From sequence record OZ335964.1: a DNA stretch of 64,000 bases. One strand, 5' to 3'. Positions 3,042-45,185 of this stretch are shown one piece after another. The stretch comes from a phage. Position 1 is the first letter of the stretch; every line of letters begins with the position of its first letter. Under the pieces are notes generated by a model. That model was not told where the DNA came from. It did no database searches and saw only the letters and a list, made by a program, of their open reading frames with translations. The position numbers and the translations under genes were made by a program.

Positions 3042-3558
3042 AAAATTGGTCCAGGCTAGGCAATTCCTCGGTCAATACATCTTCAACCTTTGGCGCTTTC
3101 GGTTTATTGACCGATTCCTCGTAGTTGTTGATTTTATCGTAAATGTCCTGTATGAATGCCTCATCCGCAATCTGGCACATATCAGCGTCGCGTTCGTCAT
3201 ATACATGATGCACAAAATATTTGTATTTTGCGGCTGTCGCTGTTCTTTCTTTTTTAATGCGCTGCACAAAAGCATTAAAGCACGCTTGCGTAATGTAAGC
3301 ATGAGGATTTTTATACTTTGTCTCGTCAAAATTAATCAAACCCTTGACCGCCGCTTCGATTCCGTCGTCGATCATTTCTTCGCGCCATGTTTGACTATAG
3401 CCAGAAAAGTTAAAACGCCGTGATAGATTTTTAGAGATTTGCATAATTGCTAGACCGATTTGGTCGCTCATTGGCACTTGCCGACCTTCTGCTGCAATTC
3501 GTTGTTTCCAACGGCAAATTTCTTCGTAAAGCTCTTTATTGTTTACATAATCAGACAC
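3025..3558 (-). CDS. 55: late-transcription sigma factor gp55
   Basis: 177 aa; YVNNKEL...FNFSGY...[29 protein letters not shown] matches remembered T4 gp55; GTG start with GAGGGT RBS. Confidence 0.9.
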
Positions 3559-3598
3559 TTCGCACCCTCGCTATTATTTAGGAAATAACCCTTTCGGG

Positions 3599-5068
3599 CT
3601 ATTCCCCATTACCATTATACTTTCTTTGCTTAGTTATCCACACTCTAACCATTTCTACTGATTCGCCGTCAGACGGATCAAGAGTTTTTCCTTTTTTCTT
3701 CATGCGGTACTTAAATCCGTTAAATCTTGCATTCTCTTGCTCGTTAAAGTCGAACATCTTTTTAAATGATTTTCGCCCTTTACGCTCACCACATTCTAGC
3801 GGAATCATTCGGTCTGTTATTACATTGGCATTAGGTAGAAACGTTTTTAGATAATCCACCAACGCCCAATCAGGAACATATAGATTAACATTCTCCTTGC
3901 TCTCGTTGTCTCTCAGGTTACAACGCAAACATAATTGAAATGCTGGTTCCAGATAATCAGACACATGACGCGCTTTCAAAAACTCGTTTGTCGGGAGATC
4001 ACAACTATTAGCAAGACCTTTTAAAATATCAATCTCCCATCGTTGAGGGTTAAAGCTGAACATCACAGCAACATTTTTATGATGAATGTAAGAGTTAAGA
4101 CCATAAGATCCGTAAGGTATCCGCTCACCAATACCATTTGTGCACGCTTCTCGGTCCCGATTCACGGTATAAATGAAGTCATCACCACATTCATTTTTAA
4201 CCATATCAACAAGACGTTCAAAGGTATTGTTTGTTTCTGACTGGTGACGCGACCATCGTTCAGAGTCCGTCATAAGGATGATGTTAACTCTATCTGTATT
4301 TTTATACTCTTTGAAATATAGTCTGGATTCTAGCGCACTCGGAACAAAATCGCAATTTGCATAGTATCGTAGATACTTCCCACTATATGTATCAAAGAGA
4401 TTTGCACATGCTATCGTAACCTTTTTAAAGTCTCCCCACGTACCGTGTTTGTTATCGTTCAAGAAAACAATTTTCGACCCATTCTTCCGGTGTCCTTCGT
4501 TATGTTTTACCATAACGTTGATTTTCTTCTCTAATAACGCCTCATAAAGCCCTCTAAGCGAAGAATCGATCATATCAGTACCATCCTTCGCACTTTCTAT
4601 CTTTTCTTTGATAGCGGACTTCTCAGAGTCTTTTAGAACTAAGTTCTGTAGGCATTCCGATTCGTCGGCGATTGGTTCGCAATGCTTCGTGATAAGTTCA
4701 AGATTAGACTTAAACGGATACTCATTAAATTCAACCAGTTGAGGAACTTCATCAATGTAAAGAGCATAATCACCAAACATTTTTGAACGTTCCATATTAG
4801 ATAACGCTGTATGTGTAATGAATATCACATCAGCACCGTCTTTAACTGATTGCATTATCGACGCTTGCACTGTCTTAAGGCTTCTTAGTCGTGTGCTATC
4901 AATCAAGACAGCACGACCGCCCATTCTTTTAAACTTATTGTAAGATTGTTCACTTAAAACACGAGATGGCGAAGCAATAACCGCTTTTTCTTTTGTCTCT
5001 AGGACGTGGGAAAGTATAGCATCAGTTTTCCCCGCCGCTGGCAATGCGATTAATGTTTCAATCTTCAT
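3599..5068 (-). CDS. P-loop NTPase of unknown function (Walker A ALPAAGKT, Walker B ALYIDE)
   Basis: 489 aa; Walker A/B motifs read directly; sits after gp55, next to the slot where T4 has a-gt; no family assignment possible without search. Confidence 0.6.
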   Translation of the reverse strand: MKIETLIALPAAGKTDAILSHVLETKEKAVIASPSRVLSEQSYNKFKRMGGRAVLIDSTRLRSLKTVQASIMQSVKDGADVIFITHTALSNMERSKMFGDYALYIDEVPQLVEFNEYPFKSNLELITKHCEPIADESECLQNLVLKDSEKSAIKEKIESAKDGTDMIDSSLRGLYEALLEKKINVMVKHNEGHRKNGSKIVFLNDNKHGTWGDFKKVTIACANLFDTYSGKYLRYYANCDFVPSALESRLYFKEYKNTDRVNIILMTDSERWSRHQSETNNTFERLVDMVKNECGDDFIYTVNRDREACTNGIGERIPYGSYGLNSYIHHKNVAVMFSFNPQRWEIDILKGLANSCDLPTNEFLKARHVSDYLEPAFQLCLRCNLRDNESKENVNLYVPDWALVDYLKTFLPNANVITDRMIPLECGERKGRKSFKKMFDFNEQENARFNGFKYRMKKKGKTLDPSDGESVEMVRVWITKQRKYNGNGE

Positions 5069-25238: not shown

Positions 25239-25637
25239 TTAAGCCAGTCGAGTGAGTTTATAAATTGTTTTAAAGCATAAAACTTTAATATCGTCTAAAA
25301 CGCTCTGCAAAGAGCTATCAACATCATTATAAATCTCACTAGCCATTTGCGTTAATTCCTGCAAATAGGCAATTTCGTTAATCTCCTTACGGACGACCAA
25401 CGTTGGTTGATACCGACCAGTGATCCCAATATTGGTTTCTGTGAAATTATCAACCAATTCTTGCATTTCAAGATAGAACTCTTCTAGAGCCTTATGTTTT
25501 GAATAAGACCCAGGTCCAGTTACCCCAAAATGCGCAGAATGCATATAAGTAACGCTCATTAGGCATTCACCAATAAAGCGGTCTACTTTATTAGCTTTTC
25601 CTCCCTCGGAAGTCTGCCTAAATTCACTGAATTTCAT
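25239..25637 (-). CDS. ferritin/Dps-like protein (putative)
   Basis: 133 aa; HSAHFGVTGPGSYSKHKALEEFY resembles the Dps HxxHW.V.GP.F..LH..FEE.Y helix motif; GGAGAA RBS. Confidence 0.4.
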   Translation of the reverse strand: MKFSEFRQTSEGGKANKVDRFIGECLMSVTYMHSAHFGVTGPGSYSKHKALEEFYLEMQELVDNFTETNIGITGRYQPTLVVRKEINEIAYLQELTQMASEIYNDVDSSLQSVLDDIKVLCFKTIYKLTRLA

Positions 25638-25923
25638 TATATCGATTCTCCATTTTATTAAGCACAATAAATTGATTTGCGGCATACTCTCCCATCATGA
25701 AACAATGTTTAGCATCCATACATTTACTACGTGCGTATGTTTTCATTATGTGGTCATGAAATTTTTGACTTGTCTCCACCGATGGTTGTATTTTGTTTAT
25801 ATACACGATCATAGCACCGTCGAAGTAATCAGTAAAGTCACCAACAGGACACTGATCGGCACTTACGCTACCAACTGCCATAACGCATATACCCGCAACG
25901 AGTGTTTTACGAATAAATGACAT
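25624..25923 (-). CDS. secreted small protein, RI-like (candidate lysis-inhibition antiholin)
   Basis: 99 aa; N-terminal signal-anchor; size, Cys pair and position next to tk as T4 rI; MKTYARSKC...C resembles T4 RI MRTTYKNDPC...C. Confidence 0.45.
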   Translation of the reverse strand: MSFIRKTLVAGICVMAVGSVSADQCPVGDFTDYFDGAMIVYINKIQPSVETSQKFHDHIMKTYARSKCMDAKHCFMMGEYAANQFIVLNKMENRYNEIQ

Positions 25924-25984
25924 AAGTCATTCCCCCAGATTAAAAATTTCAAGTATATTTATAATCTGGGGATATATTTACGCC

Positions 25985-27085: not shown

Positions 27086-27276
27086 AGATGACTCCAATAT
27101 AATCGACATTTACATTTAGGGCAATGCGGTTCTTTAATATAATACCCGTCTGTCTTTGGAACACTAACAGGAGCGGTTTTTATATTGTATTCAGTGAAAC
27201 AACGAAAACAAGTTACGTTTTCTACAGACTGACGTTTCACCCAATCACCGGAATAGAGATCATTTTTATTTGTCAT
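27082..27276 (-). CDS. Cys-rich small protein (zinc-ribbon-like)
   Basis: ATG at 27276; CFRCF...HCPKCKC. Confidence 0.45.
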   Translation of the reverse strand: MTNKNDLYSGDWVKRQSVENVTCFRCFTEYNIKTAPVSVPKTDGYYIKEPHCPKCKCRLYWSHL

Positions 27277-27721
27277 ATTCAACCACCACAATGTTAATGT
27301 CTGGAGTAGCAATATTAATGATCTCTTCTACACATTCCCACTCAAGGCCACCGATACCGCAACCGATTTTAGGAATATAGAAAGGCTGTATAGCACCTTC
27401 AAAAACATCATTGATAGTCTCAAATCCTTTCAGGATAGCACCATATTCAGCATTTGGACCCGGTCGGAATTGGGTATAGAGATTCACCCCGCACCAGTTA
27501 TAACCATTAACTTGATGCGTCCAGACACTAAACCCACCCAGCTTTTCTACCTTACCGCGAGAAGTTTGCTTGTCAATTTCTAACGCTTGCGGGAACTCTT
27601 TCGCGATATCCGCAGCAATACCAGCGCCCATAGTATGAAAACAATTACAACCATGAATTAAATGACCGTTTCCTTGTTTAAACAGGGCGATGAGATCGCC
27701 CTTTACAGTATCAATAATCAT
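27266..27721 (-). CDS. macro-domain-like protein (putative ADP-ribose binding/processing)
   Basis: 151 aa; HGCNCFHTMGAGIAADI resembles the macro-domain N..N...G.G(V/I) loop. Confidence 0.55.
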   Translation of the reverse strand: MIIDTVKGDLIALFKQGNGHLIHGCNCFHTMGAGIAADIAKEFPQALEIDKQTSRGKVEKLGGFSVWTHQVNGYNWCGVNLYTQFRPGPNAEYGAILKGFETINDVFEGAIQPFYIPKIGCGIGGLEWECVEEIINIATPDINIVVVEYDK

Positions 27722-27736
27722 AATATAAACCTCTCA

Positions 27737-28096
27737 TTAGTCACGGGAAGACAACCCAGCCATAAAACGGCTTAAAAGCGTGTCACGATAAGCAAAGCAT
27801 AATTGCTTATCAGGGGCAGTATCACACAGGTTGCGTTTTGTTTTAGCAAAGCTGGCAATACTCAGATCCCACGCTCGATTTTTTCGTTTTTCATCTCGAC
27901 CTTGTTTGTATGCCTCGTCAAGTTCAAGTGCGATAAAATCGCTACACATGTTATCATCATCACAGAAGGTTTTAATGATCTTTTTGTTGATCTCAAATCC
28001 TTTGTATTCGACCTTTGGATAAGGGCGCTCATTACTAGCAAGCGCACCAGCCGAGAACATCATAGCAATCATAGCAATTATTGTCAACTTTTTCAT
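27737..28096 (-). CDS. secreted protein of unknown function
   Basis: 119 aa; signal peptide MKKLTIIAMIAMMFSAGALA. Confidence 0.5.
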   Translation of the reverse strand: MKKLTIIAMIAMMFSAGALASNERPYPKVEYKGFEINKKIIKTFCDDDNMCSDFIALELDEAYKQGRDEKRKNRAWDLSIASFAKTKRNLCDTAPDKQLCFAYRDTLLSRFMAGLSSRD

Positions 28097-28103
28097 ATAT
28101 TCC

Positions 28104-28694
28104 TCAATAGCGTTTAGTTTTAAGAATGCCTTTACTCTTTAGATGGTTAGCCTTTTTTAGTACGTCATCAGCATAACCCAATCCGGCTTTATAGTTCCAT
28201 CCAGCATTGTAAGAAGCTAGCGCGAGTCGGATATTACCGTTTCGAACATCCAGCCAGTATGCTAACTCATCCATCGCGTAGAATGCAGAAACCTCGCGAT
28301 TCATGATAAATTTGATAGTCTGGCGATCACTCATTTTAACACCGCGCTTTGCATTTTTCGCTTTCACCGTTTTAAGGTAATTTTGAAATAATCCATAAGC
28401 ATGATGATTTTTCTTTGGTGCTAAGTTTGCACCCGCGCTTGATTCTTGCCATGCTATACCCGCCAGGATGTGGCCTAAACCCTTTCCGTCATAGCGAATA
28501 TTCGGATGGTCATTTTTCAACTTACCGCTTTTCTCGAATTGTTCGCCATATTGATAGGCGAAATGTAAATTATCTAGTTGGTGTGCTGTAAAGTTGTCTA
28601 TCGGCGCTTTTTTGATCGGTGCGCTAGTCGATGCGTGTGTAGCACCAACGGCTAGTGACAGACTCAATACTATCGCTTTTAGAACTTTTAACAT
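28104..28694 (-). CDS. secreted lytic transglycosylase (SLT domain)
   Basis: 196 aa; signal peptide; SLT motifs GIAWQESS, AYGLFQ, ALASYNAG. Confidence 0.75.
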   Translation of the reverse strand: MLKVLKAIVLSLSLAVGATHASTSAPIKKAPIDNFTAHQLDNLHFAYQYGEQFEKSGKLKNDHPNIRYDGKGLGHILAGIAWQESSAGANLAPKKNHHAYGLFQNYLKTVKAKNAKRGVKMSDRQTIKFIMNREVSAFYAMDELAYWLDVRNGNIRLALASYNAGWNYKAGLGYADDVLKKANHLKSKGILKTKRY

Positions 28695-28779
28695 TAATTT
28701 CTCCTGTTTGGCTTAACTTTCTGATTCCATAATATAGCCCTATCACCAGAAAGTCAAGCATTATTTTAACCAATCTCCA

Positions 28780-29202
28780 TTATTGGTCCACTTTCAAAAC
28801 AACAGCCGACATTTTACCCGCCAGTCGTTTTGGATTCTCTATAATCATTCGACAGCATAGACCGTGATATGGCTTGCCGTCTTCAATTAGGTCTACTGTC
28901 ATCCCGATCCACATGTTACCGTCAGTAATTTCTAATCGATTAGGTCGGTCTTCCATTTTCAGGAAGTCGAAGATCTCCGGCAAACGAGTTTCTACCTTAT
29001 TGAATAGTTCCATTGTCTTATGTTCATCGATATGACGATCGGTTAGACGGTCGATCATATGCGGACTAAAGCGAATGAAAATATACTCACCGTAACCATC
29101 ATTCAAGCACTTTTCTTTGATCTGCGCATTGGTTTTGCGCATTTCGGTTTCGAAGAATCTACGCAGCTTACTACGGCGAACGTGTACATTAATTGTTTCC
29201 AT
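28780..29202 (-). CDS. regB: site-specific endoribonuclease RegB
   Basis: METINVHVRRSKLRRFFETE...NRLEITDGNMW matches remembered T4 RegB; ATG at 29202 after AAGGAGAATAAA. Confidence 0.85.
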   Translation of the reverse strand: METINVHVRRSKLRRFFETEMRKTNAQIKEKCLNDGYGEYIFIRFSPHMIDRLTDRHIDEHKTMELFNKVETRLPEIFDFLKMEDRPNRLEITDGNMWIGMTVDLIEDGKPYHGLCCRMIIENPKRLAGKMSAVVLKVDQ

Positions 29203-29203
29203 T

Positions 29204-29542
29204 TTATTCTCCTTTCTTAAACAAATTGCGAAGCCAGTATACAAACGGGATTTCTTTAAACTTGAACTTGTCAATAGTTAATTCTTTAGTAGCAAGATGA
29301 ATACCATAAGCATCATGTGTCACGATATGCCATTTTCTATAGCCCAAATGTGAACAACCGTCTGAATCTAGGTTAATAAGAGTTTCTCGCTCACTAGGAT
29401 TATTTTTCCACAATTTTGTAACCGGGTCGCACATAATTCGACCTAGCGTACCATGAATAATCTCACAACGGTAAAGTTTTCCAGCAGTGAGATAGGCGCA
29501 CCCGTCATAGTCGGTATAAACAAACACTTCTTTAACACTCAT
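29204..29542 (-). CDS. small paralog (C.HL.G..W family), double-domain member
   Basis: ATG at 29542; DYDGCAYLTAGKLY and DSDGCSHLGYRKWHIV. Confidence 0.5.
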   Translation of the reverse strand: MSVKEVFVYTDYDGCAYLTAGKLYRCEIIHGTLGRIMCDPVTKLWKNNPSERETLINLDSDGCSHLGYRKWHIVTHDAYGIHLATKELTIDKFKFKEIPFVYWLRNLFKKGE

Positions 29543-29573
29543 TTTAATACTCCTTTGTTGTTTCGATGGGGGT

Positions 29574-29602
29574 ATATTACTACCCCCGATCATGTGTGTC
29601 AA
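29574..29602 (-). promoter_or_regulatory. sigma70-like early promoter with stem-loop (TTGACA-N17-TAATAT)
   Basis: minus strand; hairpin GGGGGTA..TACCCCC. Confidence 0.45.
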
Positions 29603-29848
29603 CTACTTTTTCAAGAATTTTTTAATTGCGTTCCAAAGACCTTTATTCTCAGGTTGTTTTGGTTCTTCGATCAGCGTCCATGTTCGACCGTCTAAGTGTG
29701 CACAATTTTTAAGGCAAATAAAAATCTGGTGTCCCTTATCATCACGGATATAACCACTATTCGCAAATCTTTCATGTGGTGTATATTCATACAGTGTATT
29801 TGGTGTAATATACTTGCGGTTACTATAAGGTGTCATCACATACATCAT
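29603..29848 (-). CDS. small paralog (C.HL.G..W family)
   Basis: ATG at 29848 (ATGA overlap), GGGAG RBS; CAHLDGRTWTLI. Confidence 0.5.
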   Translation of the reverse strand: MMYVMTPYSNRKYITPNTLYEYTPHERFANSGYIRDDKGHQIFICLKNCAHLDGRTWTLIEEPKQPENKGLWNAIKKFLKK

Positions 29849-30039
29849 GGTACTAACTCCCAACGATCACCGCGAAGATGAGAACATCCACCATCAAGAA
29901 GGATCGTAATACGAAACCCCGCATCATCTTCAATATACCCGATAGTCGGTGGATGTTCGTCGTCTCGTGCCGGGGTAAAATCATACATCTTTCCGGGCGT
30001 AATATCTTGTCCTTTATTGCTATTGGTATAAACTTGCAT
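29845..30039 (-). CDS. small paralog (C.HL.G..W family)
   Basis: 64 aa; CSHLRGDRWELV. Confidence 0.5.
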   Translation of the reverse strand: MQVYTNSNKGQDITPGKMYDFTPARDDEHPPTIGYIEDDAGFRITILLDGGCSHLRGDRWELVP

Positions 30040-30060
30040 TTTCTTAATCTCCTATATTAA

Positions 30061-30759
30061 CTAACCACGGGTATAGTGTTCCAGAACAACGGTCAGATGA
30101 ATATATTCTAATAAATCTTTCCAAAAGTCAACATCTGGTTCTTCCGGCATACCGTTTTTCTTTGCCTCTTCACGCGCGAGTTTAACACGCTCGTAGAGAT
30201 CTTTCAATTCTTCCCGCACATTATCAAAGGTTCTTTCTCCTAACTTACACGCTAAAATAGAAGAACGTCGCGCGAGTGGGAATTGTAGATCACCTGTCTG
30301 ATAGATTTCAAGTAGCTGATAACCAACACGCAGAGCATGAGAAAGATCTTTCCAGTTACTGAAATACTTTTCAGATTTTGCTACCTGCTTTTTGAGATAA
30401 CCAGACAAACCCCACATCCCAACATGATAGAATTTATCGCGATGTGTTCGGATGTATTCCCATTCTCTGGAGGATTCAATCAACATGTTACTAGGCGCGT
30501 GCACCATGTCAATAGCGCCAATATCACCTTTACATGCCAGATTGATAAACCGTTTTAGACTGAACATATTAACGTCAATATCGTCTTTGGTGTTCTTGAT
30601 ACCTTGACCGCTAGTGCTTTGGTCATAGTGTTCTTTCATCGTTCCTAAGATAATTTCTTTCGCAGTCGGAACAAAGATACCACGATAATCTTTATCGGAA
30701 TTTTCAGTATCAAGACCGTATAAGTGAGATCCGAAGACCATTTTAACCATTGTATGCAT
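30061..30759 (-). CDS. Pol-beta-superfamily nucleotidyltransferase (putative)
   Basis: 232 aa; FGSHLYGLDTENSDKDYRGIF = GS...G...SD.D nucleotidyltransferase motif near N-terminus. Confidence 0.6.
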   Translation of the reverse strand: MHTMVKMVFGSHLYGLDTENSDKDYRGIFVPTAKEIILGTMKEHYDQSTSGQGIKNTKDDIDVNMFSLKRFINLACKGDIGAIDMVHAPSNMLIESSREWEYIRTHRDKFYHVGMWGLSGYLKKQVAKSEKYFSNWKDLSHALRVGYQLLEIYQTGDLQFPLARRSSILACKLGERTFDNVREELKDLYERVKLAREEAKKNGMPEEPDVDFWKDLLEYIHLTVVLEHYTRG

Positions 30760-30801
30760 AATTAAACCCTCAGTTGATTAAGAGATTGCATCATATCATC
30801 A

Positions 30802-30835
30802 TAAAACGAAAAAGCCAACCCTTTTCGGATTGGCT
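30802..30835 (-). terminator. intrinsic terminator after GrcA-like gene
   Basis: AGCCAAUCC..GGGUUGGCU hairpin + U-run on minus strand. Confidence 0.65.
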
Positions 30836-30845
30836 TGATGAAAAA

Positions 30846-31262
30846 TTAGAGAGATTCGGTAAAGGTGCGCGAAATAACATCACGTTGTTGGTCTGGAGTC
30901 AGACTATTGAATCTTACGGCATATCCGCTAACGCGAATGGTTAGTTGCGGATACTTATCAGGATTAGCAACCGCATCAAGAAGAAGATCGCGACTCATCA
31001 CATTGATATTCGCGTGCTGACCTCCTTCGACAACCGGAGCACCAGTATCTACAATAACAGGACGGAAGCTAGTTGTGTGCAGTGCCAGCGAATCGACGTC
31101 TTCTGCGGTGATCACATGGTCTTCTGCGAAAGTTTTACTAACAATTACTTTAGCGCCGATCAGTGCTTTCGGTTCGGATACCAGAATCATAGGCGCGAAA
31201 TGTCCACCAATAATAGTACCTTTATGCTCACCTTTCATGATTTGAATTGCTTTAAATTCCAT
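30846..31262 (-). CDS. grcA: autonomous glycyl radical cofactor GrcA/YfiD-like protein
   Basis: 138 aa; C-terminus [33 protein letters not shown] matches remembered E. coli GrcA/PflB glycyl radical domain. Confidence 0.85.
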
Positions 31263-31397
31263 AATTCACCTCTTATAGATCAGGACGTTCGTCATTAATT
31301 TTACCAACCAAAACACCATAGAGTTTATCAGGTTGGACTTTACGATTCTTATTGATTGTAGCACGAAATCGACGAGCTACGCTATCTTTATTTTTCA

Positions 31398-31883
31398 TCA
31401 GTTGATACCTAAGCCAATGAAAATAGGTTGGTCTTCTACATTACCCATTCCAACACTACGTCGATTTAATTCTAAAAACTGCAATACGCTGTCAGTAAAT
31501 CCGCGCATGGTAGTATCTAGGATAAAAATTGTTTTGTCAAGACTACGACCTCGCCAAGTGATCGGATTCAGGAAAGTTCGGATCGACGTGCAATCTACAT
31601 TTGAAATGTTGACATTTTCACCGCGACCGCGATCTCGGATCGTTTTGGCATGTTCCCGCGTCGTTGAAACGATAAAGACACTATAGCCCTTTCGCGTATA
31701 ATGGTCATATAACTTGATTGTAGCGTCTGTATGCCCTGTCTGACGGCCTAAATTGATTGAGACAATGGAATCTAGGTCATCAGCAAAATTGCGTCGCTTA
31801 CGACGTTCTATGATGTCATTTACGGCAGATACACACGCAGCATAAATCAAATCTTTACTTTCTAATTTTACATCAATATTCAT
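31398..31883 (-). CDS. hypothetical protein
   Basis: 161 aa ATG-initiated ORF. Confidence 0.5.
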   Translation of the reverse strand: MNIDVKLESKDLIYAACVSAVNDIIERRKRRNFADDLDSIVSINLGRQTGHTDATIKLYDHYTRKGYSVFIVSTTREHAKTIRDRGRGENVNISNVDCTSIRTFLNPITWRGRSLDKTIFILDTTMRGFTDSVLQFLELNRRSVGMGNVEDQPIFIGLGIN

Positions 31884-31945
31884 GGTAAAGTCTCCAGTGA
31901 ACGGGGAGAGATCCTTAGATTGTCTCCCCGTTGATGGTTAATATT

Positions 31946-32335
31946 TTATTTTGGATCTGGGTATTTGCTGTGTGGCAATTGTAGATGAGGACCATCTTTA
32001 AACGATACCCAATCCCCACCCCATTCAACAGGAACACCCAATTCTCGACCAGCTTGTTTAAATGCATCAGCGATCATGCGGTAATATTTCATGTTCCATG
32101 TATCCTTATCTTTCGGATACGCTACAACGTCAACCGCGAAACCGTGAAGATGACGAGATTTCATAGTCTTAGATTTACCTTCCGCAACATATTTCTTTTG
32201 CGTTTCTAGACTACGCACACCTTCCGTAATACCAAAATCGACCGGAGTCAGTTCTAATGCACGATGAACGACTTTTACCAGGTCTGGATGTACACCAACA
32301 AGCCGATCTTTGCTTCTTTGAGATAATTTAAACAT
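31946..32335 (-). CDS. peptidase M15 (LAS metallopeptidase, VanY-like) - probable endolysin
   Basis: 129 aa; SRHLHGFAVDV...DGPHLQL zinc ligands; occupies the position of T4 e. Confidence 0.7.
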   Translation of the reverse strand: MFKLSQRSKDRLVGVHPDLVKVVHRALELTPVDFGITEGVRSLETQKKYVAEGKSKTMKSRHLHGFAVDVVAYPKDKDTWNMKYYRMIADAFKQAGRELGVPVEWGGDWVSFKDGPHLQLPHSKYPDPK

Positions 32336-32363
32336 TATTCACCCCCTTTGTGAGTGATAATAT

Positions 32364-32555
32364 TTAGATTCCAGTGATCCTGCATAGAGTTCTTGTATTA
32401 GCACCAATCAGGATCGCATTAACGACAACCATTCCCCAATCAACCCACTGATTATTATAAATGCTAAACCCGTTTGCAAGACCAAATACAAGCATTCCGG
32501 TACACATACTCAGAGCAATAATCAACATCACGGTAAAACCAAATGCAAATCTCAT
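32364..32555 (-). CDS. small hydrophobic membrane protein
   Basis: 63 aa, hydrophobic throughout. Confidence 0.45.
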   Translation of the reverse strand: MRFAFGFTVMLIIALSMCTGMLVFGLANGFSIYNNQWVDWGMVVVNAILIGANTRTLCRITGI

Positions 32556-32556
32556 A

Positions 32557-32772
32557 TTATTTTCCTTTTCTCTGTTTACGTTTATAAAAGTAATACATTA
32601 CCTCATCGCGTCCGGTGATCCAACATGCTAGGGCGGTAAACAGGTTTACAATTCCCAACACACCTACGGATGCGGCGCTGTCAACAGACATAGGAACAGT
32701 AAAGGCCATAGCTAACATAGCAACGCCACAAATGACATTAAGCACCATTATAATAAGACCGAAGAAAACCAT
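32557..32772 (-). CDS. small hydrophobic membrane protein
   Basis: ATG at 32772 with GGGAGGA RBS. Confidence 0.45.
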   Translation of the reverse strand: MVFFGLIIMVLNVICGVAMLAMAFTVPMSVDSAASVGVLGIVNLFTALACWITGRDEVMYYFYKRKQRKGK

Positions 32773-32774
32773 TG

Positions 32775-32954
32775 TCAATCCTCCCAAATAAGAAAACCAA
32801 CAATCACGCCAGTGATAAGACATGATGCGCCGCTAATCAGACAACCCGCGCCAAGTGATTCCCACCAGATCAGAGAAGCGACAATAACGCAAATTCCCCA
32901 GACTACCGCAATCACAACATAGGCAATGGTCGCCAAAAACATATATTTGTTCAT
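32775..32954 (-). CDS. small hydrophobic membrane protein
   Basis: ATG at 32954 directly after upstream stop. Confidence 0.4.
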   Translation of the reverse strand: MNKYMFLATIAYVVIAVVWGICVIVASLIWWESLGAGCLISGASCLITGVIVGFLIWED

Positions 32955-33139
32955 AATAAATCCCATTCACCAAACAAATAAGAAAAAAGCCATATCAACA
33001 GAAACGAGGCAATTGATCCGGCAAGCAAAATGATATTAGAGAATCCACCGTTTATCCAGTTGACAAAACAGAATACGCCAGTATAGAAGCATAAACCCAT
33101 TACAAAGCATACTATAAGCAACCATAGATAAAACGCCAT
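32951..33139 (-). CDS. small hydrophobic membrane protein
   Basis: 62 aa; GGAGGG RBS. Confidence 0.45.
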   Translation of the reverse strand: MAFYLWLLIVCFVMGLCFYTGVFCFVNWINGGFSNIILLAGSIASFLLIWLFSYLFGEWDLL

Positions 33140-33200
33140 AGAAAGCCCTCCAGCGAGATAAATTAGTGCGGGTAGGGGAATGTACTACCCGCTTTGTTAA

Positions 33201-33359
33201 TCAACGCAGGGCTTGTTCTAGCGCGATCCCAAACCATCCACAAACAACGCCCATACAGACAGCTACAAGAAGATTCATTCTCTCTTTAGGGATCATTGCA
33301 ATCATAACAACAACCATACAGAAAGCCATTACCATTGAAGTTAACATTTGTTCAACCAT
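33201..33359 (-). CDS. small hydrophobic membrane protein (not in ORF track)
   Basis: 52 aa MVEQMLTSMVMAFCMVVVMIAMIPKE... with AAGGTG RBS. Confidence 0.4.
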   Translation of the reverse strand: MVEQMLTSMVMAFCMVVVMIAMIPKERMNLLVAVCMGVVCGWFGIALEQALR

Positions 33360-33361
33360 TA

Positions 33362-33694
33362 TCACACCTTTAAAGTCATAGACGCATAAACATTAACACC
33401 AGGCCAGTTAGGATCGCAATTATACTCAACATCCCACAAATAAAGCGGTTTAGATGTATCAGCCAAGTTTTTAAAATCTTCTACCCACATTTCAATGCTA
33501 TATGATGGATAAACTAGGCTGTCATATCCTCCGTAACGTTGGCCTACTGGTCGGTCAGTAAAAACTACCTCAAGATCCGGTAATTCTTTTTCAAGGATAA
33601 CCGCCAGCGCATAAATCAGACGGTCTTCCTTGTTACGCTGCCGAAGGACCGTTGTCAGTTGGCTTTTCTGGTTCACTAGCAAGCACCTCCACAT
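33362..33694 (-). CDS. hypothetical protein (start uncertain)
   Basis: ORF track 33362..33700 (GTG); overlaps upstream gene by about 60 nt. Confidence 0.35.
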   Translation of the reverse strand: MWRCLLVNQKSQLTTVLRQRNKEDRLIYALAVILEKELPDLEVVFTDRPVGQRYGGYDSLVYPSYSIEMWVEDFKNLADTSKPLYLWDVEYNCDPNWPGVNVYASMTLKV

Positions 33695-33953
33695 TTTCAC
33701 AGAATGAAATTTTCACAGACACAATTTTACCATAAGTGAAGAATGAATATACATTATCGAGATATTCAACGTCACCTACAATCACATCAAACTGCGGATC
33801 AGCAACCGCCGCAACATATTCTACCAGTTCATCAAGAGAATGCAACTTAATTTCATCAATTCGGCTGTATTTGGTTGCATCTTTGATTTTAAAACCACGT
33901 TCTTTCAGCTTATCAATTAGAATTTCACGCGGAGTTTCAAACAGTTTGCTCAT
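33633..33953 (-). CDS. hypothetical protein
   Basis: 106 aa; GAGGATTATACT leader. Confidence 0.5.
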   Translation of the reverse strand: MSKLFETPREILIDKLKERGFKIKDATKYSRIDEIKLHSLDELVEYVAAVADPQFDVIVGDVEYLDNVYSFFTYGKIVSVKISFCENVEVLASEPEKPTDNGPSAA

Positions 33954-33975
33954 AGTATAATCCTCACATAGTTAA

Positions 33976-34170
33976 TCAATGGTCAATAATCTTGCACATT
34001 ATAACAGAAAGAACAAAGACCGCAACCCACATATAGATCCCAGCAATCAATGCAATTTCAATATCACAATATCCAAGATATACAACAGGAATAAAAACAA
34101 ACATACAGACCAGCGCAAAGAAACTAGCAAAGGCGCTAGAAAATCCGATAGCAGTATTAGTAATATTCAT
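33976..34170 (-). CDS. small hydrophobic membrane protein
   Basis: 64 aa, two predicted TM helices. Confidence 0.45.
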   Translation of the reverse strand: MNITNTAIGFSSAFASFFALVCMFVFIPVVYLGYCDIEIALIAGIYMWVAVFVLSVIMCKIIDH

Positions 34171-34171
34171 A

Positions 34172-34354
34172 TTAACAATCCTCGCGGCTTAAGTCAACAG
34201 CAATTGCATACAGCATAATGAATATGCTAGCCGATCCGAGAATCAATACACCCTCACATTTTGAAACTCGCTCATCAAAATGTAACATTATCCAACCGAG
34301 GATGTTAAAGGCGCAGACCGCGCCTATGTTCGCTAACCAATTAATCTTTTTCAT
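34172..34354 (-). CDS. small hydrophobic membrane protein
   Basis: 60 aa. Confidence 0.45.
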   Translation of the reverse strand: MKKINWLANIGAVCAFNILGWIMLHFDERVSKCEGVLILGSASIFIMLYAIAVDLSREDC

Positions 34355-37770: not shown

Positions 37771-38235
37771 TTACAGTTTGGTCGTCCACTCCAGGTCTAG
37801 ATCTTCGACATACTCATGAGATCGGACAATCTCTAAATCGAACTCTAGGTCAGTGCCAAATTTACGCGCACCAACATCATAAGAAAGCGTGATATGCGGT
37901 ACATATTCAGGATAATCCCACGTCGCGCCTAAAGCAGTTCCGATATCGTGTCTGAATTGCATGTAGTCGCTTTCAAATGCCAGCACAAGTGCATTAGTAC
38001 CGGATTGAGTTTCAAACACTTTCAGATGACACAGAGAGCCTAAGAACTTTTCCCCTTCTTCTGGGATAAACGGAACATAGACACGAGAATATAAGATAGT
38101 GCTATGAAGTTTATCACGAGGAACGGCATTAGGCAGATCGTAGAACTCCTGCAATTTTTCAATGCGGTCTAGTGTATCCTCAGTGAATTTAACCGCCGCA
38201 TATGTACCTTTAACGGATTCTCGAAACGGGGTCAT
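37771..38235 (-). CDS. 57B: 2H-phosphoesterase-fold protein, Acb1 (gene 57B)-like cyclic-oligonucleotide phosphodiesterase
   Basis: two H-x-T/S motifs (KLHSTIL, VPHITLS); position immediately before 57A and gp1 as T4 57B; ATG at 38235 after GGAGG. Confidence 0.65.
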   Translation of the reverse strand: MTPFRESVKGTYAAVKFTEDTLDRIEKLQEFYDLPNAVPRDKLHSTILYSRVYVPFIPEEGEKFLGSLCHLKVFETQSGTNALVLAFESDYMQFRHDIGTALGATWDYPEYVPHITLSYDVGARKFGTDLEFDLEIVRSHEYVEDLDLEWTTKL

Positions 38236-38237
38236 AA

Positions 38238-38489
38238 TCAAGCCTCCGTGATCAGTTCTACTTCCTCTTCTGCGTCTTCGCCTTTAGGGAGAAGTGATTT
38301 CACTTCTTCGACAATAGCATCAAGGGAAACAGTGCCGTTTTCGTCTGGCTGAATACCCAGAATGCGTACCAGTTCCATCAATACACGCTCACGATCTTTC
38401 AGTTGGCCTTCTAAGAATGCGGCCTTTTCTTGAGTGTCAAACAGACGGACTTTCAGGACATTAATCATTTGTTCATGCTGATTGGACAT
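38238..38489 (-). CDS. 57A: tail fibre assembly chaperone gp57A-like
   Basis: 83 aa acidic coiled-coil protein directly before gp1, as T4 57A. Confidence 0.55.
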   Translation of the reverse strand: MSNQHEQMINVLKVRLFDTQEKAAFLEGQLKDRERVLMELVRILGIQPDENGTVSLDAIVEEVKSLLPKGEDAEEEVELITEA

Positions 38490-39194: not shown

Positions 39195-39785
39195 TTACTT
39201 TCTAAAAGCAGGGTGCATAGCTTTAATACCTTCCACCCGCTGACGATCCGCCGCCTGAATTGCAGGGCGAGGAACGATCAGTTGACCATCACGTTCAATG
39301 CTCATTGTTTTAAAGGGAAGAATTGCAGTACACACCAGAGATTCATGCATATCATCGGTGTATGTTAACTCAAGTTCCCCCAATTGTGAACACCAACAAC
39401 CATAAAAGTTAAAAGTGCACACAATGTTACGGCGTTCGTTGTCCATCATGTGAACTTGAACGGCTTCCGGCATTGAATCCTTCCACGCAGTGGAGTTACC
39501 GTTATTGTAGTCTACTATAGAAAGCATCCATGTGTAAAGGTTTAGATAGCTTTCTAGATGTTCATCGACAATAAACCGAACGACCAACGGGTCAAACTCC
39601 ACATGACTAGACGGATAATCAGCGACCGCCAAACCATATTGACCAGCAACTTGCTTAGTCGGTGGAATGGTTATAGCCGGAAGTGTAACACCTTGACAGT
39701 TTAAAGTAAAGCCTTTTGTTAGCTGTCCATCTGGAATATTGATCTGCCAGTTGCTAGGGTTAGCATAGTTAAAGAGATTAGACAT
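39195..39785 (-). CDS. 3: tail completion / sheath stabiliser gp3
   Basis: 196 aa; position between gp1 and gp2 as in T4. Confidence 0.7.
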   Translation of the reverse strand: MSNLFNYANPSNWQINIPDGQLTKGFTLNCQGVTLPAITIPPTKQVAGQYGLAVADYPSSHVEFDPLVVRFIVDEHLESYLNLYTWMLSIVDYNNGNSTAWKDSMPEAVQVHMMDNERRNIVCTFNFYGCWCSQLGELELTYTDDMHESLVCTAILPFKTMSIERDGQLIVPRPAIQAADRQRVEGIKAMHPAFRK

Positions 39786-40259: not shown

Positions 40260-41402
40260 TTAACTATTGATCATATCAATGACGTTTTGTAGCTCTGATA
40301 TGGATAGCGTTTCTGTATATCCATCGGGCATATCTTCTTTACTAACATAGAAACCTTTATACTTTTTCTTTATTGCACATTCCATAGAAAGAGCATCATC
40401 ACCGTTATCGTATTTTTTATAAAATGTCAACTCATGACGAAATATAGATTTTGAAGATTGGTTTTGTATTCTTTTTATTAATCTGTTGTTGGTTATACCA
40501 AATTTTATAGCAACCGCAACATCTTCTTTGTATAAAGTTTGTACATAAATGTATGCAGGTTTATTCCTCTTAAATCCATGATTGCTACACATAGGGCAAC
40601 CGCTATTTTTTGATACGTAGTCTCCTAAGTTTGGCGTAAATTCATGTCCGCTACTACAACGCATTACCAATTTTGTTTTTAGCATTCCTCTATACTCACC
40701 GCCAACAAAATCAACAAATGTATCACCTTTATCAATCGCCTTATCTGTTATTTCCTTTACTACTTGCTCAGTTGACTTCTTGTTTTTACCTGAACATAGT
40801 TTACATCTAGATCCATTAACTAAAAACGAGTGACCAGATGCAGTATATTCATGTCCATTAGGACATTTAACTAAGATATTTCTTTCATAAAAATCTTTAT
40901 AATCAGACACATAGCCAATAACTTCGTGGTCTTTTTGGGCATTCCTCATCTCTGTTAGCAACTCTTCGCTATTCCAGCGTTTACCCTTAACGCAGAGACA
41001 ACCATGACCTTGATAAAGATATATAAATTTCTTAGTAAAGTTTTTGTTACAGTCAGGGCAGTGCATTAGTAATTCTGTCATTTGACCTGTATACCCTTTA
41101 GGAATATCGATCAATGTGTATTTTCCGCATATTGTCTTTAATGCATCATCTATTCTTTCTTTGGTCCAGCGTAAGCGACCAGTGCATTCATGACATTTTA
41201 CACCCAGTCTAAGAGTATCTAAACTAAATATAGTTGACGTATGTCCTTTATCACATTTTAACTTAAATCTAGTATCCTTTGCGTTGGTGTATTCTCCAAC
41301 TAGACCATACCATTCATAACCACATGGGATATGTTCTTTTACCTTCTCTAGATATACACCGAACGGTCTAGGAACTGAATTAGGTTTTCTTTCTTTAGTC
41401 AT
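40260..41402 (-). CDS. multi-zinc-ribbon protein with C-terminal GIY-YIG-like (T5orf172-type) nuclease domain; probable free-standing homing-endonuclease-like gene
   Basis: 380 aa; four about 45 aa Cys modules (CDKGH..CHEC, CPDC, CPNGH..CKLC, CSSGH..CPMC) then KPAYIYVQ...KFGITNNRLIKR; inserted between gp3 and gp2. Confidence 0.5.
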   Translation of the reverse strand: MTKERKPNSVPRPFGVYLEKVKEHIPCGYEWYGLVGEYTNAKDTRFKLKCDKGHTSTIFSLDTLRLGVKCHECTGRLRWTKERIDDALKTICGKYTLIDIPKGYTGQMTELLMHCPDCNKNFTKKFIYLYQGHGCLCVKGKRWNSEELLTEMRNAQKDHEVIGYVSDYKDFYERNILVKCPNGHEYTASGHSFLVNGSRCKLCSGKNKKSTEQVVKEITDKAIDKGDTFVDFVGGEYRGMLKTKLVMRCSSGHEFTPNLGDYVSKNSGCPMCSNHGFKRNKPAYIYVQTLYKEDVAVAIKFGITNNRLIKRIQNQSSKSIFRHELTFYKKYDNGDDALSMECAIKKKYKGFYVSKEDMPDGYTETLSISELQNVIDMINS

Positions 41403-41457: not shown

Positions 41458-42279
41458 TTAAAACAATTTCCACACCTTACGAGCATCATATTTCTTGTCT
41501 TTGCTCATAAACTGGTAGGTCGGAAGATACACGACCGTGCTCCAATCTTTTGGTGCGATCTCAATCAGTTTTGTTTGGATGTGTCCAGGCAAATATGCTT
41601 TGATCATGTGGTCTGCGCCTCTCATACCTTTAACATCACTCCATTTAATTTTTAAACGAGTTTTATTACTAAGAGTAGGTGTACTCGCGTATTGTCGCAA
41701 CAACGCTTCTAAGAACTGCTGGCGAGCTTTAGGTGGCGCATAGTGCAAGTTCAAACCTAGCATAATCTCGTTTCCCGCTTTAGATGTACCAAATCCTAGA
41801 CAGATAATCAAGGGGTATCGGTCAAAGAATGGCAAAGAATCCCGATATTTTGGGTTATACGCATAAGTATAGATCCGTCCCACTTGTGGTTTTACTACCT
41901 GATGACCTTTTACACCCGCCTTGATAGTCTTCATAAACCATTCTTGCGACTTCTCTTTAGGGCGACTCTTTGATACAGCACGCATAGACGCACGAAAATC
42001 ATTAATCATCATCATTGCGCGTTGCTGCTTATTGAGACCCTTTGCGCCTTTCCCTTTTAGTTTTTCAACTTCTATTGCTGTTTTAATTTCGCTGGCATAA
42101 CGAGACATACTTTTAGTGAAAGTTGCATAGGCTATTCCCTTAGAATCTGCAAATGCTTTAGCTGTCATGCCTTTGGCTTTTGCTTTCGCAAATTCTACAC
42201 CCAATTCGACCCACTGTTTAGACTTTCGTTTTTGGGGAGACGGCTTTTCGTCTTCTGTGATTATTTCAAATACGCTCAT
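41458..42279 (-). CDS. 2: DNA end protector protein gp2
   Basis: 273 aa; size and position match T4 gp2. Confidence 0.8.
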   Translation of the reverse strand: MSVFEIITEDEKPSPQKRKSKQWVELGVEFAKAKAKGMTAKAFADSKGIAYATFTKSMSRYASEIKTAIEVEKLKGKGAKGLNKQQRAMMMINDFRASMRAVSKSRPKEKSQEWFMKTIKAGVKGHQVVKPQVGRIYTYAYNPKYRDSLPFFDRYPLIICLGFGTSKAGNEIMLGLNLHYAPPKARQQFLEALLRQYASTPTLSNKTRLKIKWSDVKGMRGADHMIKAYLPGHIQTKLIEIAPKDWSTVVYLPTYQFMSKDKKYDARKVWKLF

Positions 42280-42290: not shown

Positions 42291-42764
42291 CTATTTGTTA
42301 AGCCCTTTAAAGCCAAATACTTTCTTTAATGCATGTTCGGTGATGATCTTAAACTCCATGTTATGCTTTTGGCATAATTTCACGGCAGCTAACCATTTTT
42401 CAGTATTTTTTGTGTACGTCCATACTTCATGCATATATCGTTGCTTTGTCTTTGCGGTCATTCTTTTTGGCTTTTCCGGTGGCCTTGTCTCTTTAGCTGG
42501 TTTAACTTCCCATAAATGCTCCTTGCCATCATCAAACTTAACGTAAAAATCCATAAAGTATCTGTGTCTTTTTCCGTCTGTTGATGACTCATAAGGAATT
42601 ACTACGGTCTCAGATCCCCATTTTGCAACTCTAGGATTGCGGTCTAGCCACTGCATGATCCATCTTTCCCAGCTTGAACGGTATGTGATCTTACGTATAT
42701 CCCCTTTATACTTTTCCTTATTCTCAGGAACATACTTACCCTTATAAGTGTTAGATCCTCCCAT
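42291..42764 (-). CDS. 4: head completion protein gp4
   Basis: 157 aa; divergent from gp53 as in T4. Confidence 0.8.
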   Translation of the reverse strand: MGGSNTYKGKYVPENKEKYKGDIRKITYRSSWERWIMQWLDRNPRVAKWGSETVVIPYESSTDGKRHRYFMDFYVKFDDGKEHLWEVKPAKETRPPEKPKRMTAKTKQRYMHEVWTYTKNTEKWLAAVKLCQKHNMEFKIITEHALKKVFGFKGLNK

Positions 42765-43385: not shown

Positions 43386-45185
43386 ATGCTAATGTTTAAT
43401 AACTCCGTTAAATGGTTTACCGGAATTGTAGAAAACAGGGAAGACCCATTAATGCTGGGGCGCGTTCAGGTTAGGATTCATGGTATACATCCTTCGCTAT
43501 CCGCACACGGTGACATTCAAGGTCTTCCAACCGAAGATCTATTATGGATTACGCCAGTACAAGATATTACAAGTGCGGCGATCTCCGGTATAGGTCAAAG
43601 CCCTACTGGTATTGTTGAAGGTTCAATGGTATTTGGTTTGGCTTTAGATGAACGTTATTTAAACTGCGTTATTCTTGGTACTATTGCCGGACAATATACA
43701 GAGAAACCACTCACGACAGAAGGTTTTTGTGACCCTTCTGGTGCATATCCTCGTTATATTGGTAATGATGTTAATATTCTTGCTCGTGGCGGTATTAACC
43801 CAGAAACCGGACAAACAACAAAACCTGATAGTGTCTATATTCGAGATGAAAACACTGGAGTTGCCGTAAATCCAGACGACGAGCCATTAGACCAAATTCC
43901 GGTTGATGATAATCCTGATTTTACAATAGAAAAAATGCTGCGGGGCGATGAGGGATATCGCGAGAAATGGTATCTTGATTCAGAAGGATATCCGACAATA
44001 GGCATCGGGCATTTGATCATTTATAAGAAAACCAGTGATCTTGGTATTATCAATAATGAACTTTCTAAGCTGGTAGGGCGTGAAGTTACAAACGGAAGAC
44101 TTACAGCCGAAGAAGTTAGTAAAGTATTTGCTGACGATATAGAAAAGACTCGTCGTGATATGCGCAAACATCCACGAATTGCACCTGTCTATAATAAATG
44201 TAATGCCTCACGTCGTATGGCATTAGAAAATATGGCGTTTCAAATGGGTGTTGGTGGATTGGGTAAATTTAAGAATAGTCTTGCTGCGATGTTAGCGGAA
44301 GAATGGAAACAAGCCTATGATGGATTACGTCAATCTGTATGGGCTAATCAAACTCCAGGACGCTCCAGCCGTGTTTCTAAAATTATTTTAACTGGTAACT
44401 TAGAATCATATGGCGTAATTGCTCCAAAGAAAGAGGAATCAATTTCGGATGATCCGCGAGCACGTTTAAGAAATGCCCGTATTGCTGCCTATAAGACACA
44501 GAGAGCAGAAGAAGACCCAGAAGCACCGTTTACCCCACAAGACACACGAATCATGTTTAAAGAGCCTAAGAGTTCGTATTCTGCAAGGTATCCTTATAAC
44601 CATGTGTACGAGTCAGAGAGCGGTCATATTATCGAGATTGATGATACTCCTTCTCATGAGCGATATCATCGTAAACATCCTTCTGGTACATTTGAAGAAA
44701 CCAGACCGGACGGAACGAGGGTAGAAAAGATTGAAGGTGATGATTATCTAATCGTTAAACAAGGCCGTAAAGTAAACGTTAAGGGTAATTTGCAAGTTGT
44801 TGTTGAAGGTGACGCGCAAGTTTATTATATGGGTAATGTGATGCAAACCGTTGATGGTAACGTCACTGAATTTATTCGTGGCAATGTTAATCAGACCGTT
44901 GAAGGTACTGCTAACATGCATGTTGTCGGTGATGTTATCGCACAGCTTGACGCTAATTTGACGGCTAATGTCAAGGGTAATGCTGAATTAATGATCGAGG
45001 GTAACACTACAGAGACAATTAAAGGTAACTATGATTTAACCGTTGAGGGTAATTTTAATATGACCGTCAATGGCACTAAATCAGATCAGGTTAATGGTGA
45101 CTGGTCCCGTAATTGTGGTGCAAGCGTTAAAGATATTGCATCTGGTACAGTTAAAATTGATGGTAGCCGTATTGATCTTGGGTGA
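43386..45185 (+). CDS. 5: baseplate hub + tail lysozyme gp5 (cell-puncturing device)
   Basis: 599 aa; N-terminal OB-fold, central lysozyme domain (GYREKWYLDSEGYPTIGIGHL), C-terminal beta-helix V.G repeats. Confidence 0.9.
   Translation: MLMFNNSVKWFTGIVENREDPLMLGRVQVRIHGIHPSLSAHGDIQGLPTEDLLWITPVQDITSAAISGIGQSPTGIVEGSMVFGLALDERYLNCVILGTIAGQYTEKPLTTEGFCDPSGAYPRYIGNDVNILARGGINPETGQTTKPDSVYIRDENTGVAVNPDDEPLDQIPVDDNPDFTIEKMLRGDEGYREKWYLDSEGYPTIGIGHLIIYKKTSDLGIINNELSKLVGREVTNGRLTAEEVSKVFADDIEKTRRDMRKHPRIAPVYNKCNASRRMALENMAFQMGVGGLGKFKNSLAAMLAEEWKQAYDGLRQSVWANQTPGRSSRVSKIILTGNLESYGVIAPKKEESISDDPRARLRNARIAAYKTQRAEEDPEAPFTPQDTRIMFKEPKSSYSARYPYNHVYESESGHIIEIDDTPSHERYHRKHPSGTFEETRPDGTRVEKIEGDDYLIVKQGRKVNVKGNLQVVVEGDAQVYYMGNVMQTVDGNVTEFIRGNVNQTVEGTANMHVVGDVIAQLDANLTANVKGNAELMIEGNTTETIKGNYDLTVEGNFNMTVNGTKSDQVNGDWSRNCGASVKDIASGTVKIDGSRIDLG

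Follow-up and report, generated by a model that had tools for sequence, protein, structure and literature searches.

The window analysed here, a stretch of 64,000 nucleotides of phage DNA (sequence record OZ335964.1), encodes the tail lysozyme gp5, the small proteins Vs.1 and Vs, and a peptidase endolysin, and these cell-wall-active proteins most likely act at separate times and in separate places. The lysozyme domain of gp5, at the tail tip, would open the murein locally on entry, as expected from T4 biology. Vs.1, a predicted lytic transglycosylase, would most likely cut glycan strands in the periplasm during infection, in a limited and non-lytic manner via Glu84, and Vs, a small helical protein in which four cysteines are invariant, would work with or on Vs.1 in the same compartment. 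Late in infection, a cytoplasmic M15C peptidase would cut the L-Ala-D-Glu bond of the stem peptide in a holin-dependent manner. We give this explanation as a whole, with gp5 at entry, Vs.1 and Vs in the periplasm and the M15C endolysin at lysis, a probability of about 0.8. It is founded on the identity of the genes and their conserved residues, on export signals predicted from the sequence, and on an activity, a timing and a partnership that we infer.

The window is a piece of the genome of a Krischvirus (an RB49-like, T4-related coliphage) with ordinary content. At the DNA level, the 8-kb stretch around positions 27737–32335 is 95% identical to over 50 Krischvirus genomes besides RB49, Phi1 and GEC-3S. 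Genes on the minus strand follow a T4-like order (rI.-1, rI, tk, tk.4, vs, vs.1, regB, nrdC.11, vs.6, vs.8, endolysin), and gp53 and gp5 continue the window on the plus strand. The four open reading frames (ORFs) singled out by an initial annotation of the window are all present at the coordinates given there. Three of them, vs (27737–28096), vs.1 (28104–28694) and the endolysin gene (31946–32335), lie on the minus strand and agree with the gene calls of RB49 and GEC-3S, and the fourth, gp5, is found outside 27737–32335, at 43386–45185 on the plus strand. The initial annotation had also proposed that its reading would fail if catalytic residues were missing on alignment; none is missing from Vs.1, the endolysin or gp5. 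Almost the whole of that observation is already known, the endolysin and gp5 at textbook level, and the SLT domain and export of Vs.1 from the literature and from database annotations. The lead that remains is that Vs and Vs.1 may constitute a periplasmic two-gene module.

Vs.1 (196 aa; 28104–28694, minus strand) is predicted, from its sequence and its structural model, to be an exported single-domain protein resembling family-1 lytic transglycosylases. Its T4 orthologue is Vs.1, at 49% identity, and the two share the site between regB and vs, the signal peptide and the SLT motifs; the T4 protein lacks a 12-residue insertion that the RB49-type protein carries after the signal peptide. The match to the Pfam SLT domain (PF01464) spans residues 76–167 and scores 25.9 bits, above the gathering score of 21.3 (E-value 7.7e-6), which agrees with the signal-bearing SLT protein that the initial annotation had placed here. 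Among PHROG families, the protein belongs to phrog_600 (E-value 3.5e-60), labelled 'unknown function'. An alignment of 23 homologues, reaching down to about 40% identity, shows that E84 (codon at 28443–28445, minus strand), S86, H97, A99-Y100-G101, F103-Q104-N105, S161-Y162 and A164-G165 are invariant and that N163 is nearly so. These conserved blocks correspond to three motifs that characterise family-1 lytic transglycosylases, E-S, G-L-x-Q and A-Y-N-x-G, with Glu84 as the predicted catalytic residue.

The AF2 model of Vs.1, built from the homologue alignment, has a mean pLDDT of 84 with a core above 90, and is disordered at residues 1–3 and 17–29, the latter segment (pLDDT below 50) comprising the end of the signal peptide and a linker. 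A Foldseek search of the PDB with this model returned P. aeruginosa Slt and MltD, together with E. coli Slt70 and C. jejuni Cj0843 as the top 19 matches, bar one chitinase, with probabilities of 0.75–1.00 (best 0.96–1.00) and modest E-values of about 0.02–0.5. In a weak hhalign alignment with E. coli Slt70 (E-value 0.12), the segment IAWQESS...YGLFQN of Vs.1 is placed onto IARQESA...SGLMQI, and E84 falls on residue E505 of the precursor, which we take to be the catalytic glutamate E478 of the mature enzyme. Vs.1 has in common with Slt70, Slt and MltD the GLxQ and AYNxG motifs, one catalytic Glu placed within an E-S motif, and a fold like that of goose lysozyme. It is very divergent from Slt and MltD (about 20% identity in structural alignments) and differs from enzymes of that type in having no accessory domains and no lipobox, in being encoded by a phage, and in being paired with a small protein with four cysteines. 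Small exported 'specialised' SLT proteins are components of secretion and conjugation systems (VirB1, IpgF/IagB, EtgA and P19), and the architecture of Vs.1, a signal peptide followed by one SLT domain of about 170 aa, is presumably like that of the VirB1-type proteins.

The divergence of Vs.1 raises the question of whether it is an enzyme at all, or a catalytically dead or otherwise non-enzymatic murein binder that has retained the SLT fold. The sequence profile of Vs.1 has no relative in the PDB, the Foldseek E-values reach only about 0.02, and many members of the family fall under the Pfam SLT threshold, as also reported earlier (PMC1524935). However, the catalytic Glu, the Ser that follows it, and the G-x-F-Q and S-Y-N-A-G segments are the top-conserved positions of the family down to about 40% identity, which is the pattern expected from selection on catalysis, and a dead protein is very improbable.

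The N-terminus of Vs.1 reads MLKVLK-AIVLSLSLAVGA-THA and continues as STS, and is laid out like a cleavable Sec signal, with n-, h- and c-regions: a hydrophobic core of about 12 residues (AIVLSLSLAVGA) is followed by a cleavage-type site between T-H-A and S and by the disordered linker. By rule-based prediction, the signal peptide covers approximately residues 1–21 (28632–28694, minus strand). The rules called for a positive n-region, an uncharged hydrophobic h-region of about 10–15 residues and small residues at positions −3 and −1, and these features were found in 22 of the 23 Vs.1 homologues and in 40 of the 41 Vs homologues, the remaining entries having the appearance of truncated sequences. 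Two other types of exported protein were considered for Vs.1 and rejected. A signal-anchor-release (SAR) endolysin would be expected to have an uncleaved, weakly hydrophobic, Gly/Ala-rich N-terminal transmembrane segment of about 18–20 residues; by the same heuristic reasoning, the core of Vs.1 falls short of this length, and a cleavage-type site is present; a lipoprotein was discarded on the lack of Cys or a lipobox in the signal region of the window protein, and the signal region of the window Vs likewise has neither.

The relation of vs.1 to lytic transglycosylases has been remarked on before. Nolan et al. in 2006 reported that each of the six vs.1 orthologues known at that time had an SLT match, described as 'marginally significant', and stated that this corroborated earlier PSI-BLAST matches of T4 vs.1 (PMC1524935). 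In GenBank, vs.1 of phage Stupor is annotated as 'putative lytic murein transglycosylase, putative periplasmic secretion signal', and that of UFV-AREG1 as 'transglycosylase SLT domain-containing protein'. NCBIfam holds no model that matches Vs.1, Vs or the endolysin.

Directly downstream of vs.1 lies the gene of Vs (119 aa; 27737–28096, minus strand), which the initial annotation had described as an adjacent secreted protein. The N-terminus (MKK...A-L-A, followed by S) bears out the signal peptide, predicted by the same rules at residues 1–20 (28037–28096, minus strand), and the protein itself is not anonymous, since it is the orthologue of T4 Vs by synteny and by its match to phrog_1256 ('valyl tRNA synthetase modifier'; E-value 2.5e-33). 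The identity with T4 Vs is 29%, and PF26829 is the precomputed annotation on all Vs hits. T4 Vs (PF26829, phrog_1256) likewise follows vs.1 and agrees with the window protein in its signal-like N-terminus and in the four cysteines; nothing structural differs between the two, and the cytoplasmic role implied by the family name is not matched by these sequence features. An alignment of 41 homologues leaves C45, C51, C91, C100, G66, G114 and L115 as the sole invariant residues, and the N-terminal sequence drifts freely while the features of a Sec signal are kept in 40 of them. The AF2 model (pLDDT 75) is a four-helix protein with C-x5-C at the turn between helices 1 and 2 and C-x8-C at the turn between helices 3 and 4, a modelled placement that would suit two disulfides. 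The predicted signal peptide and the four cysteines point to the periplasm, in conflict with a cytoplasmic role in binding valyl-tRNA synthetase (ValRS). An exhaustive profile search of 1.84 billion proteins revealed that the family is tiny, with 29 cluster representatives of approximately 77–134 aa, except for one weak match of 513 aa (E-value 1.3e-4), and showed no bacterial or multidomain context; a single-sequence search of the PDB with Vs found nothing.

The genes vs.1 and vs are closely linked. A survey of IMG/VR covered 69 loci with Vs.1 relatives, 42 of them close, and in 38 of these 42, which are all the loci that contain both genes, the vs start lies between −8 and +7 nucleotides from the vs.1 stop. 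Starting from matches to Vs, vs.1 is found directly upstream in T4, Stupor, PS2, KPV15, Vettismorki and PM2. In the window, the Shine-Dalgarno sequence of vs (GAGGA) overlaps the stop codon of vs.1, and in T4 the two ORFs overlap by 8 nucleotides (ATGACTAA); vs is probably translationally coupled to vs.1. Some records called for individual inspection. In the Klebsiella phage KPV15 (locus L006), a full-length vs.1 ORF is present at 1402–1923, and the annotated coding sequence starts from an internal Met and has 120 aa; in the Proteus phage PM2 (locus L081, 903–1464), vs.1 is split by a frameshift in the record. A Vs match in vB_Kpn_AM_K4, a 288-kb Klebsiella phage record, is the sole exception in the set inspected from the side of Vs and was not counted: it has no upstream vs.1, and part of Vs, without the N-terminus, is fused into a 296-aa ORF in what looks like an assembly junction.

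The signals around the two genes suggest early expression. A sigma-70-type promoter-like site, TTGACT-17-TATTAT (28729–28757, minus strand; 10 of 12 matches in a consensus scan), is located just upstream of vs.1, and GEC-3S carries an annotated promoter at the same position. The 1986 T4 sequence record likewise marks a potential −35/−10 upstream of ORF 61.4 (which is vs.1), and before vs only a ribosome-binding site. No late-promoter motif (TATAAATA) was found near vs.1 or vs. The Shine-Dalgarno sequence of vs.1, GGAG, is followed by AAAUUAA, an arrangement that partly fits the cleavage preference of RegB (PMC1702504); the GGAG and its A/U-rich tract thus hint that translation of vs.1 may be confined to the early period. 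Taken as an operon, vs.1 and vs would share a transcript that starts from a host-type (early) promoter, their translation would be coupled, and Sec would export the product of each.

A phenotype for both genes in T4 is available from a HIDEN-SEQ transposon study in preprint form (10.1101/2025.11.20.689424). Insertions were recovered at 30 of 32 TA sites in vs and at 46 of 52 in vs.1, and neither gene is essential in LB. In the liquid LB control, insertion reads were 26.6 for vs and 22.6 for vs.1, about 10-fold below those of neighbours (tk.4, 289.6; regB, 178.6; vs.3, 652.1). In M9 glucose, vs was the strongest minimal-medium hit of the data set (log2 fold change −2.19, adjusted p reported as 0.00000), and vs.1 insertions had a log2 fold change of −0.87 (p = 0.0055, adjusted 0.155); the plaque defect of a vs deletion on M9 was confirmed by the preprint authors. 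The shared phenotype of vs and vs.1 fits a common function, and the stronger effect of vs insertions than of vs.1 insertions in M9 is weakly compatible with Vs restraining Vs.1.

From these data we put forward, tentatively, that Vs, instead of or besides modifying ValRS in the cytoplasm, is a Sec-exported, disulfide-bonded periplasmic partner of Vs.1, the two forming a translationally coupled, early enzyme-plus-regulator module that would matter most on minimal medium. A conceptual precedent is found in T4 Spackle (gp61.3), an inhibitor of the gp5 lysozyme that is likewise small, exported and helical; the likeness extends only to the concept of a small, Sec-exported, helical early protein acting on a periplasmic muralytic enzyme. 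The proposal is at odds with the name of the gene, which refers to a cytoplasmic activity, the binding of the host valyl-tRNA synthetase, and it is possible, if doubtful, that Vs is indeed a cytoplasmic ValRS binder or modifier. Its N-terminus would then be no working export signal or would give partial export, its cysteines would bind metal, and its position after vs.1 would be an inherited order. This assignment is the long-standing annotation of T4 and has been copied over hundreds of records, and literature cited in PMC8076793 attributes ValRS binding to the 115-aa T4 protein. The M9 defect of the vs deletion could reflect translation or amino-acid supply, Vs.1 is present in several lineages without Vs, and four cysteines could in principle form a zinc site. 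By contrast, the retention of n/h/c Sec features in 40 of the 41 homologues despite a drifting N-terminus is typical of signal peptides, C-x5-C and C-x8-C at the turns of an all-helical model would be unusual for a zinc site, and the vs start is coupled to vs.1 wherever both genes occur. Furthermore, the 1986 T4 record lists vs only as the unnamed 'ORF 60.9', and direct evidence linking the tau peptide to the vs ORF was not traced in a search that did not reach the original assignment.

The wider distribution of Vs.1 bears on the stage at which it acts. The family is found in 2,084 phage records, among them T4-like genomes and others of Ackermannviridae or Felix-O1 size. The gene order in Cronobacter phage S13 (Straboviridae, NC_028773; L049, and L077 at 3495–4677) is alc, Vs.1-like, two Rz-like spanins and pseT, such that the Vs.1-like gene abuts both annotated T4-type spanin genes. 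At a second locus from IMG/VR (L050, 2929–3865), the Vs.1 homologue stands directly before an Rz-like i-spanin (phrog_739, E-value 1.6e-23). In both cases the position is lysis-cassette-like, unlike that in the window and in T4, and the homologue in a Felix-O1-sized phage record is annotated as 'putative lysin'. These contexts would be expected if Vs.1 were a lysis-stage enzyme, either a second exported endolysin or a spanin helper, rather than an early periplasmic remodeller. For the window this is unlikely. As the initial annotation had pointed out, the SLT gene stands apart from a classical lysis cassette: its neighbours are regB and vs, and it adjoins no holin, spanin or endolysin gene. 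In the window and in T4, vs.1 lies among early genes behind the sigma-70-type promoter, with no late-promoter motif nearby, its Shine-Dalgarno sequence is of the type that RegB inactivates after the early period, and the T4 vs.1 insertions at 46 of 52 TA sites still form plaques. Another annotation, that of a lipoprotein, is attached to the homologue of an Ackermannviridae Vibrio phage. The lineages of S13, of L050 and of this Vibrio phage have no Vs nearby, which marks Vs as an add-on in a subset of T4-like phages.

Several points weigh against early periplasmic action of Vs.1 with Vs as its partner. Vs.1 occurs without Vs in S13 and in Aeromonas T4-like phages, the latter accounting for the 4 exceptions among the 42 close loci, where vs is absent from that place; Vs is therefore not generally required for Vs.1. 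The phenotype shared by vs and vs.1 could have another cause, namely polarity of the vs.1 insertions on vs. The signal-peptide calls come from simple rules and not from a trained predictor. A profile search of the PDB with Vs.1 by sequence found nothing, a single-sequence search found nothing meaningful, and the match to Slt70 is statistically weak by itself; the SLT assignment consequently draws on the Pfam match, the motifs and the fold jointly. Finally, the literature searches yielded no muralytic or other biochemical assay for any Vs.1 protein.

The two remaining enzymes are placed at the beginning and at the end of infection by analogy with characterized proteins. The gene of gp5 (43386–45185, plus strand) encodes a baseplate hub and tail lysozyme of 599 aa with Pfam matches to Gp5_OB (E-value 1.9e-65), Phage_lysozyme (3.2e-8), Gp5_C and Gp5_trimer_C. 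The Phage_lysozyme domain (residues 181–342; 43926–44411, plus strand) is 43% identical to the T4 lysozyme e, and the residues E11, D20 and T26 of the latter align with E189, D198 and T204, so that the gp5 lysozyme listed by the initial annotation is an intact domain with its catalytic residues. T4 gp5 consists of the same OB domain, a lysozyme domain with the E/D/T catalytic residues and a C-terminal beta-helix, and shows no notable difference. On the tail tip of T4, the lysozyme domain of gp5 opens the murein locally at entry.

The endolysin (129 aa; 31946–32335, minus strand) is a Zn2+ L-alanoyl-D-glutamate peptidase of the EndoRB49 type (M15C), as judged from Pfam, PHROG and identity to PDB entries. 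It matches Pfam Peptidase_M15_4 (PF13539) with an E-value of 2.2e-11 and 44.6 bits (cut-off 25), and the PHROG endolysin family phrog_465 with an E-value of 2e-68. In PDB entry 23ri_A, 128 of the 129 residues are the same, and 8q2g_A ('peptidoglycan L-alanyl-D-glutamate endopeptidase') is nearly identical; ChiX (5opz) and the T5 endolysin (2mxz/8p3a) are farther relatives. The sole change with respect to the RB49 endolysin is V110 in the window for T110 in RB49. The Zn ligands of EndoRB49 are H62, D69 and H117, with D114 as the catalytic residue and W109 as an essential one (PMC10487532), and all are kept in the window protein. The RB49 enzyme is a zinc L-alanoyl-D-glutamate peptidase for which cleavage of L-Ala-D-Glu in murein has been established experimentally (PMC8140593, PMC10487532), and by analogy with this protein, one residue apart, the window endolysin should cut the same bond; the initial annotation was thus right in seeing a peptidase and not a T4-type lysozyme. 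Together with the EndoT5/EndoRB49 family (MEROPS M15C; PDB 23ri, 8q2g, 2mxz, 8p3a), the window endolysin has the Zn ligands, D114, W109 and a single-domain, signal-less architecture. According to the published description, ions (Ca2+) do not regulate the RB49-type enzyme, in contrast to EndoT5 (PMC10487532). Neither a signal nor a SAR segment was found at the N-terminus, where the most hydrophobic 12-residue stretch reaches only 1.33 on the Kyte-Doolittle scale. Because it has no hydrophobic N-terminal segment or export signal, the endolysin is assigned to the classical cytoplasmic, holin-dependent type.

The endolysin gene follows directly after vs.8 and precedes a run of small membrane-protein ORFs, which is the position of e in T4, as the initial annotation had noted; unlike in T4, denV, ipII and ipIII are absent from this locus. 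A tblastn search of the window with T4 e retrieved the gp5 domain as the only T4-lysozyme-like sequence, and a second lysozyme of the T4 e type was accordingly dismissed for the window. The M15C endolysin represents a non-orthologous replacement of the T4 lysozyme e at the same genomic position. Just beyond the gene, seven small ORFs (54–88 aa; 32364–34354, minus strand) have, on inspection, a high content of hydrophobic residues; each of them finds a match only in a small PHROG family of unknown function, and their position is analogous to that of the predicted membrane proteins e.2–e.8 of T4.

An RNA hairpin of 15 bp (32329–32366, minus strand) is located at the start of the endolysin gene, where the Shine-Dalgarno sequence and the AUG are paired with upstream sequence. 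Its minimum free energy is −15 kcal/mol (z = −2.48, 200 shuffles), and a scan for terminator-like structures flags the same element. Translational control is known for the T4 lysozyme gene e, and the hairpin resembles that control although e and the M15 peptidase are unrelated enzymes; by analogy, it may serve translational control of the endolysin in the same way. The 5' arm of the hairpin begins with TCTAAATA, which matches the T4 late-promoter box at 7 of 8 positions.

Other genes of the window were identified in the course of the analysis. Downstream of vs, a macrodomain protein (27266–27721, minus strand; Pfam Macro, with a weak NCBIfam DarG match) is the orthologue of T4 tk.4, which was lately named AdfM, an anti-DarTG2 factor (bioRxiv 10.1101/2025.11.20.689424). 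The rI antiholin homologue (25624–25923, minus strand) matches Pfam Antiholin with an E-value of 1e-20, and an exact TATAAATA late-promoter motif is found at 25956–25963 (minus strand), about 33 nucleotides upstream of the rI start. On the other side of vs.1, the RegB ORF (28780–29274, minus strand) was called mechanically from a TTG with 164 aa; the annotation in RB49 and GEC-3S is shorter, with 140 aa (423 nucleotides including the stop) from an internal ATG (METINVHV...). At higher coordinates lie the genes of an NrdC.11 RlaP-type nucleotidyltransferase (30061–30759, minus strand) and of a GrcA-like glycyl-radical protein, Vs.6 (30846–31262, minus strand).

Beyond the endolysin region, a homologue of the anti-CBASS protein Acb1 (T4 57B) is encoded at 37771–38241 (minus strand). 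A 380-aa ORF at 40260–41402 (minus strand) combines a CapR-homology domain with a zinc-finger domain of the treble-clef type (DUF4379). T4 lacks a gene at this place, between the apparent gp3 (39195–39785) and gp2 (41458–42279), and the ORF may be an inserted gene of mobile or defence-related nature. A 157-aa protein (42291–42764, minus strand), encoded where gp4 (head completion) would be expected, matches the Pfam Tn7_TnsA-like_N endonuclease domain with an E-value of 4e-21.

The finding is a correct re-reading of genes whose annotation already exists in dozens of Krischvirus genomes, with the enzymology and the structures of the endolysin already published. Its residual value lies in the vs.1–vs pair: the Vs.1 family is widespread (more than 2,000 phage records), and disruption of either gene has a measurable fitness cost in T4. 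Should Vs turn out to be periplasmic, the name that this gene of the best-studied phage has carried for decades would call for revision, and a new phage-encoded control of a murein-cleaving enzyme during infection would become testable.

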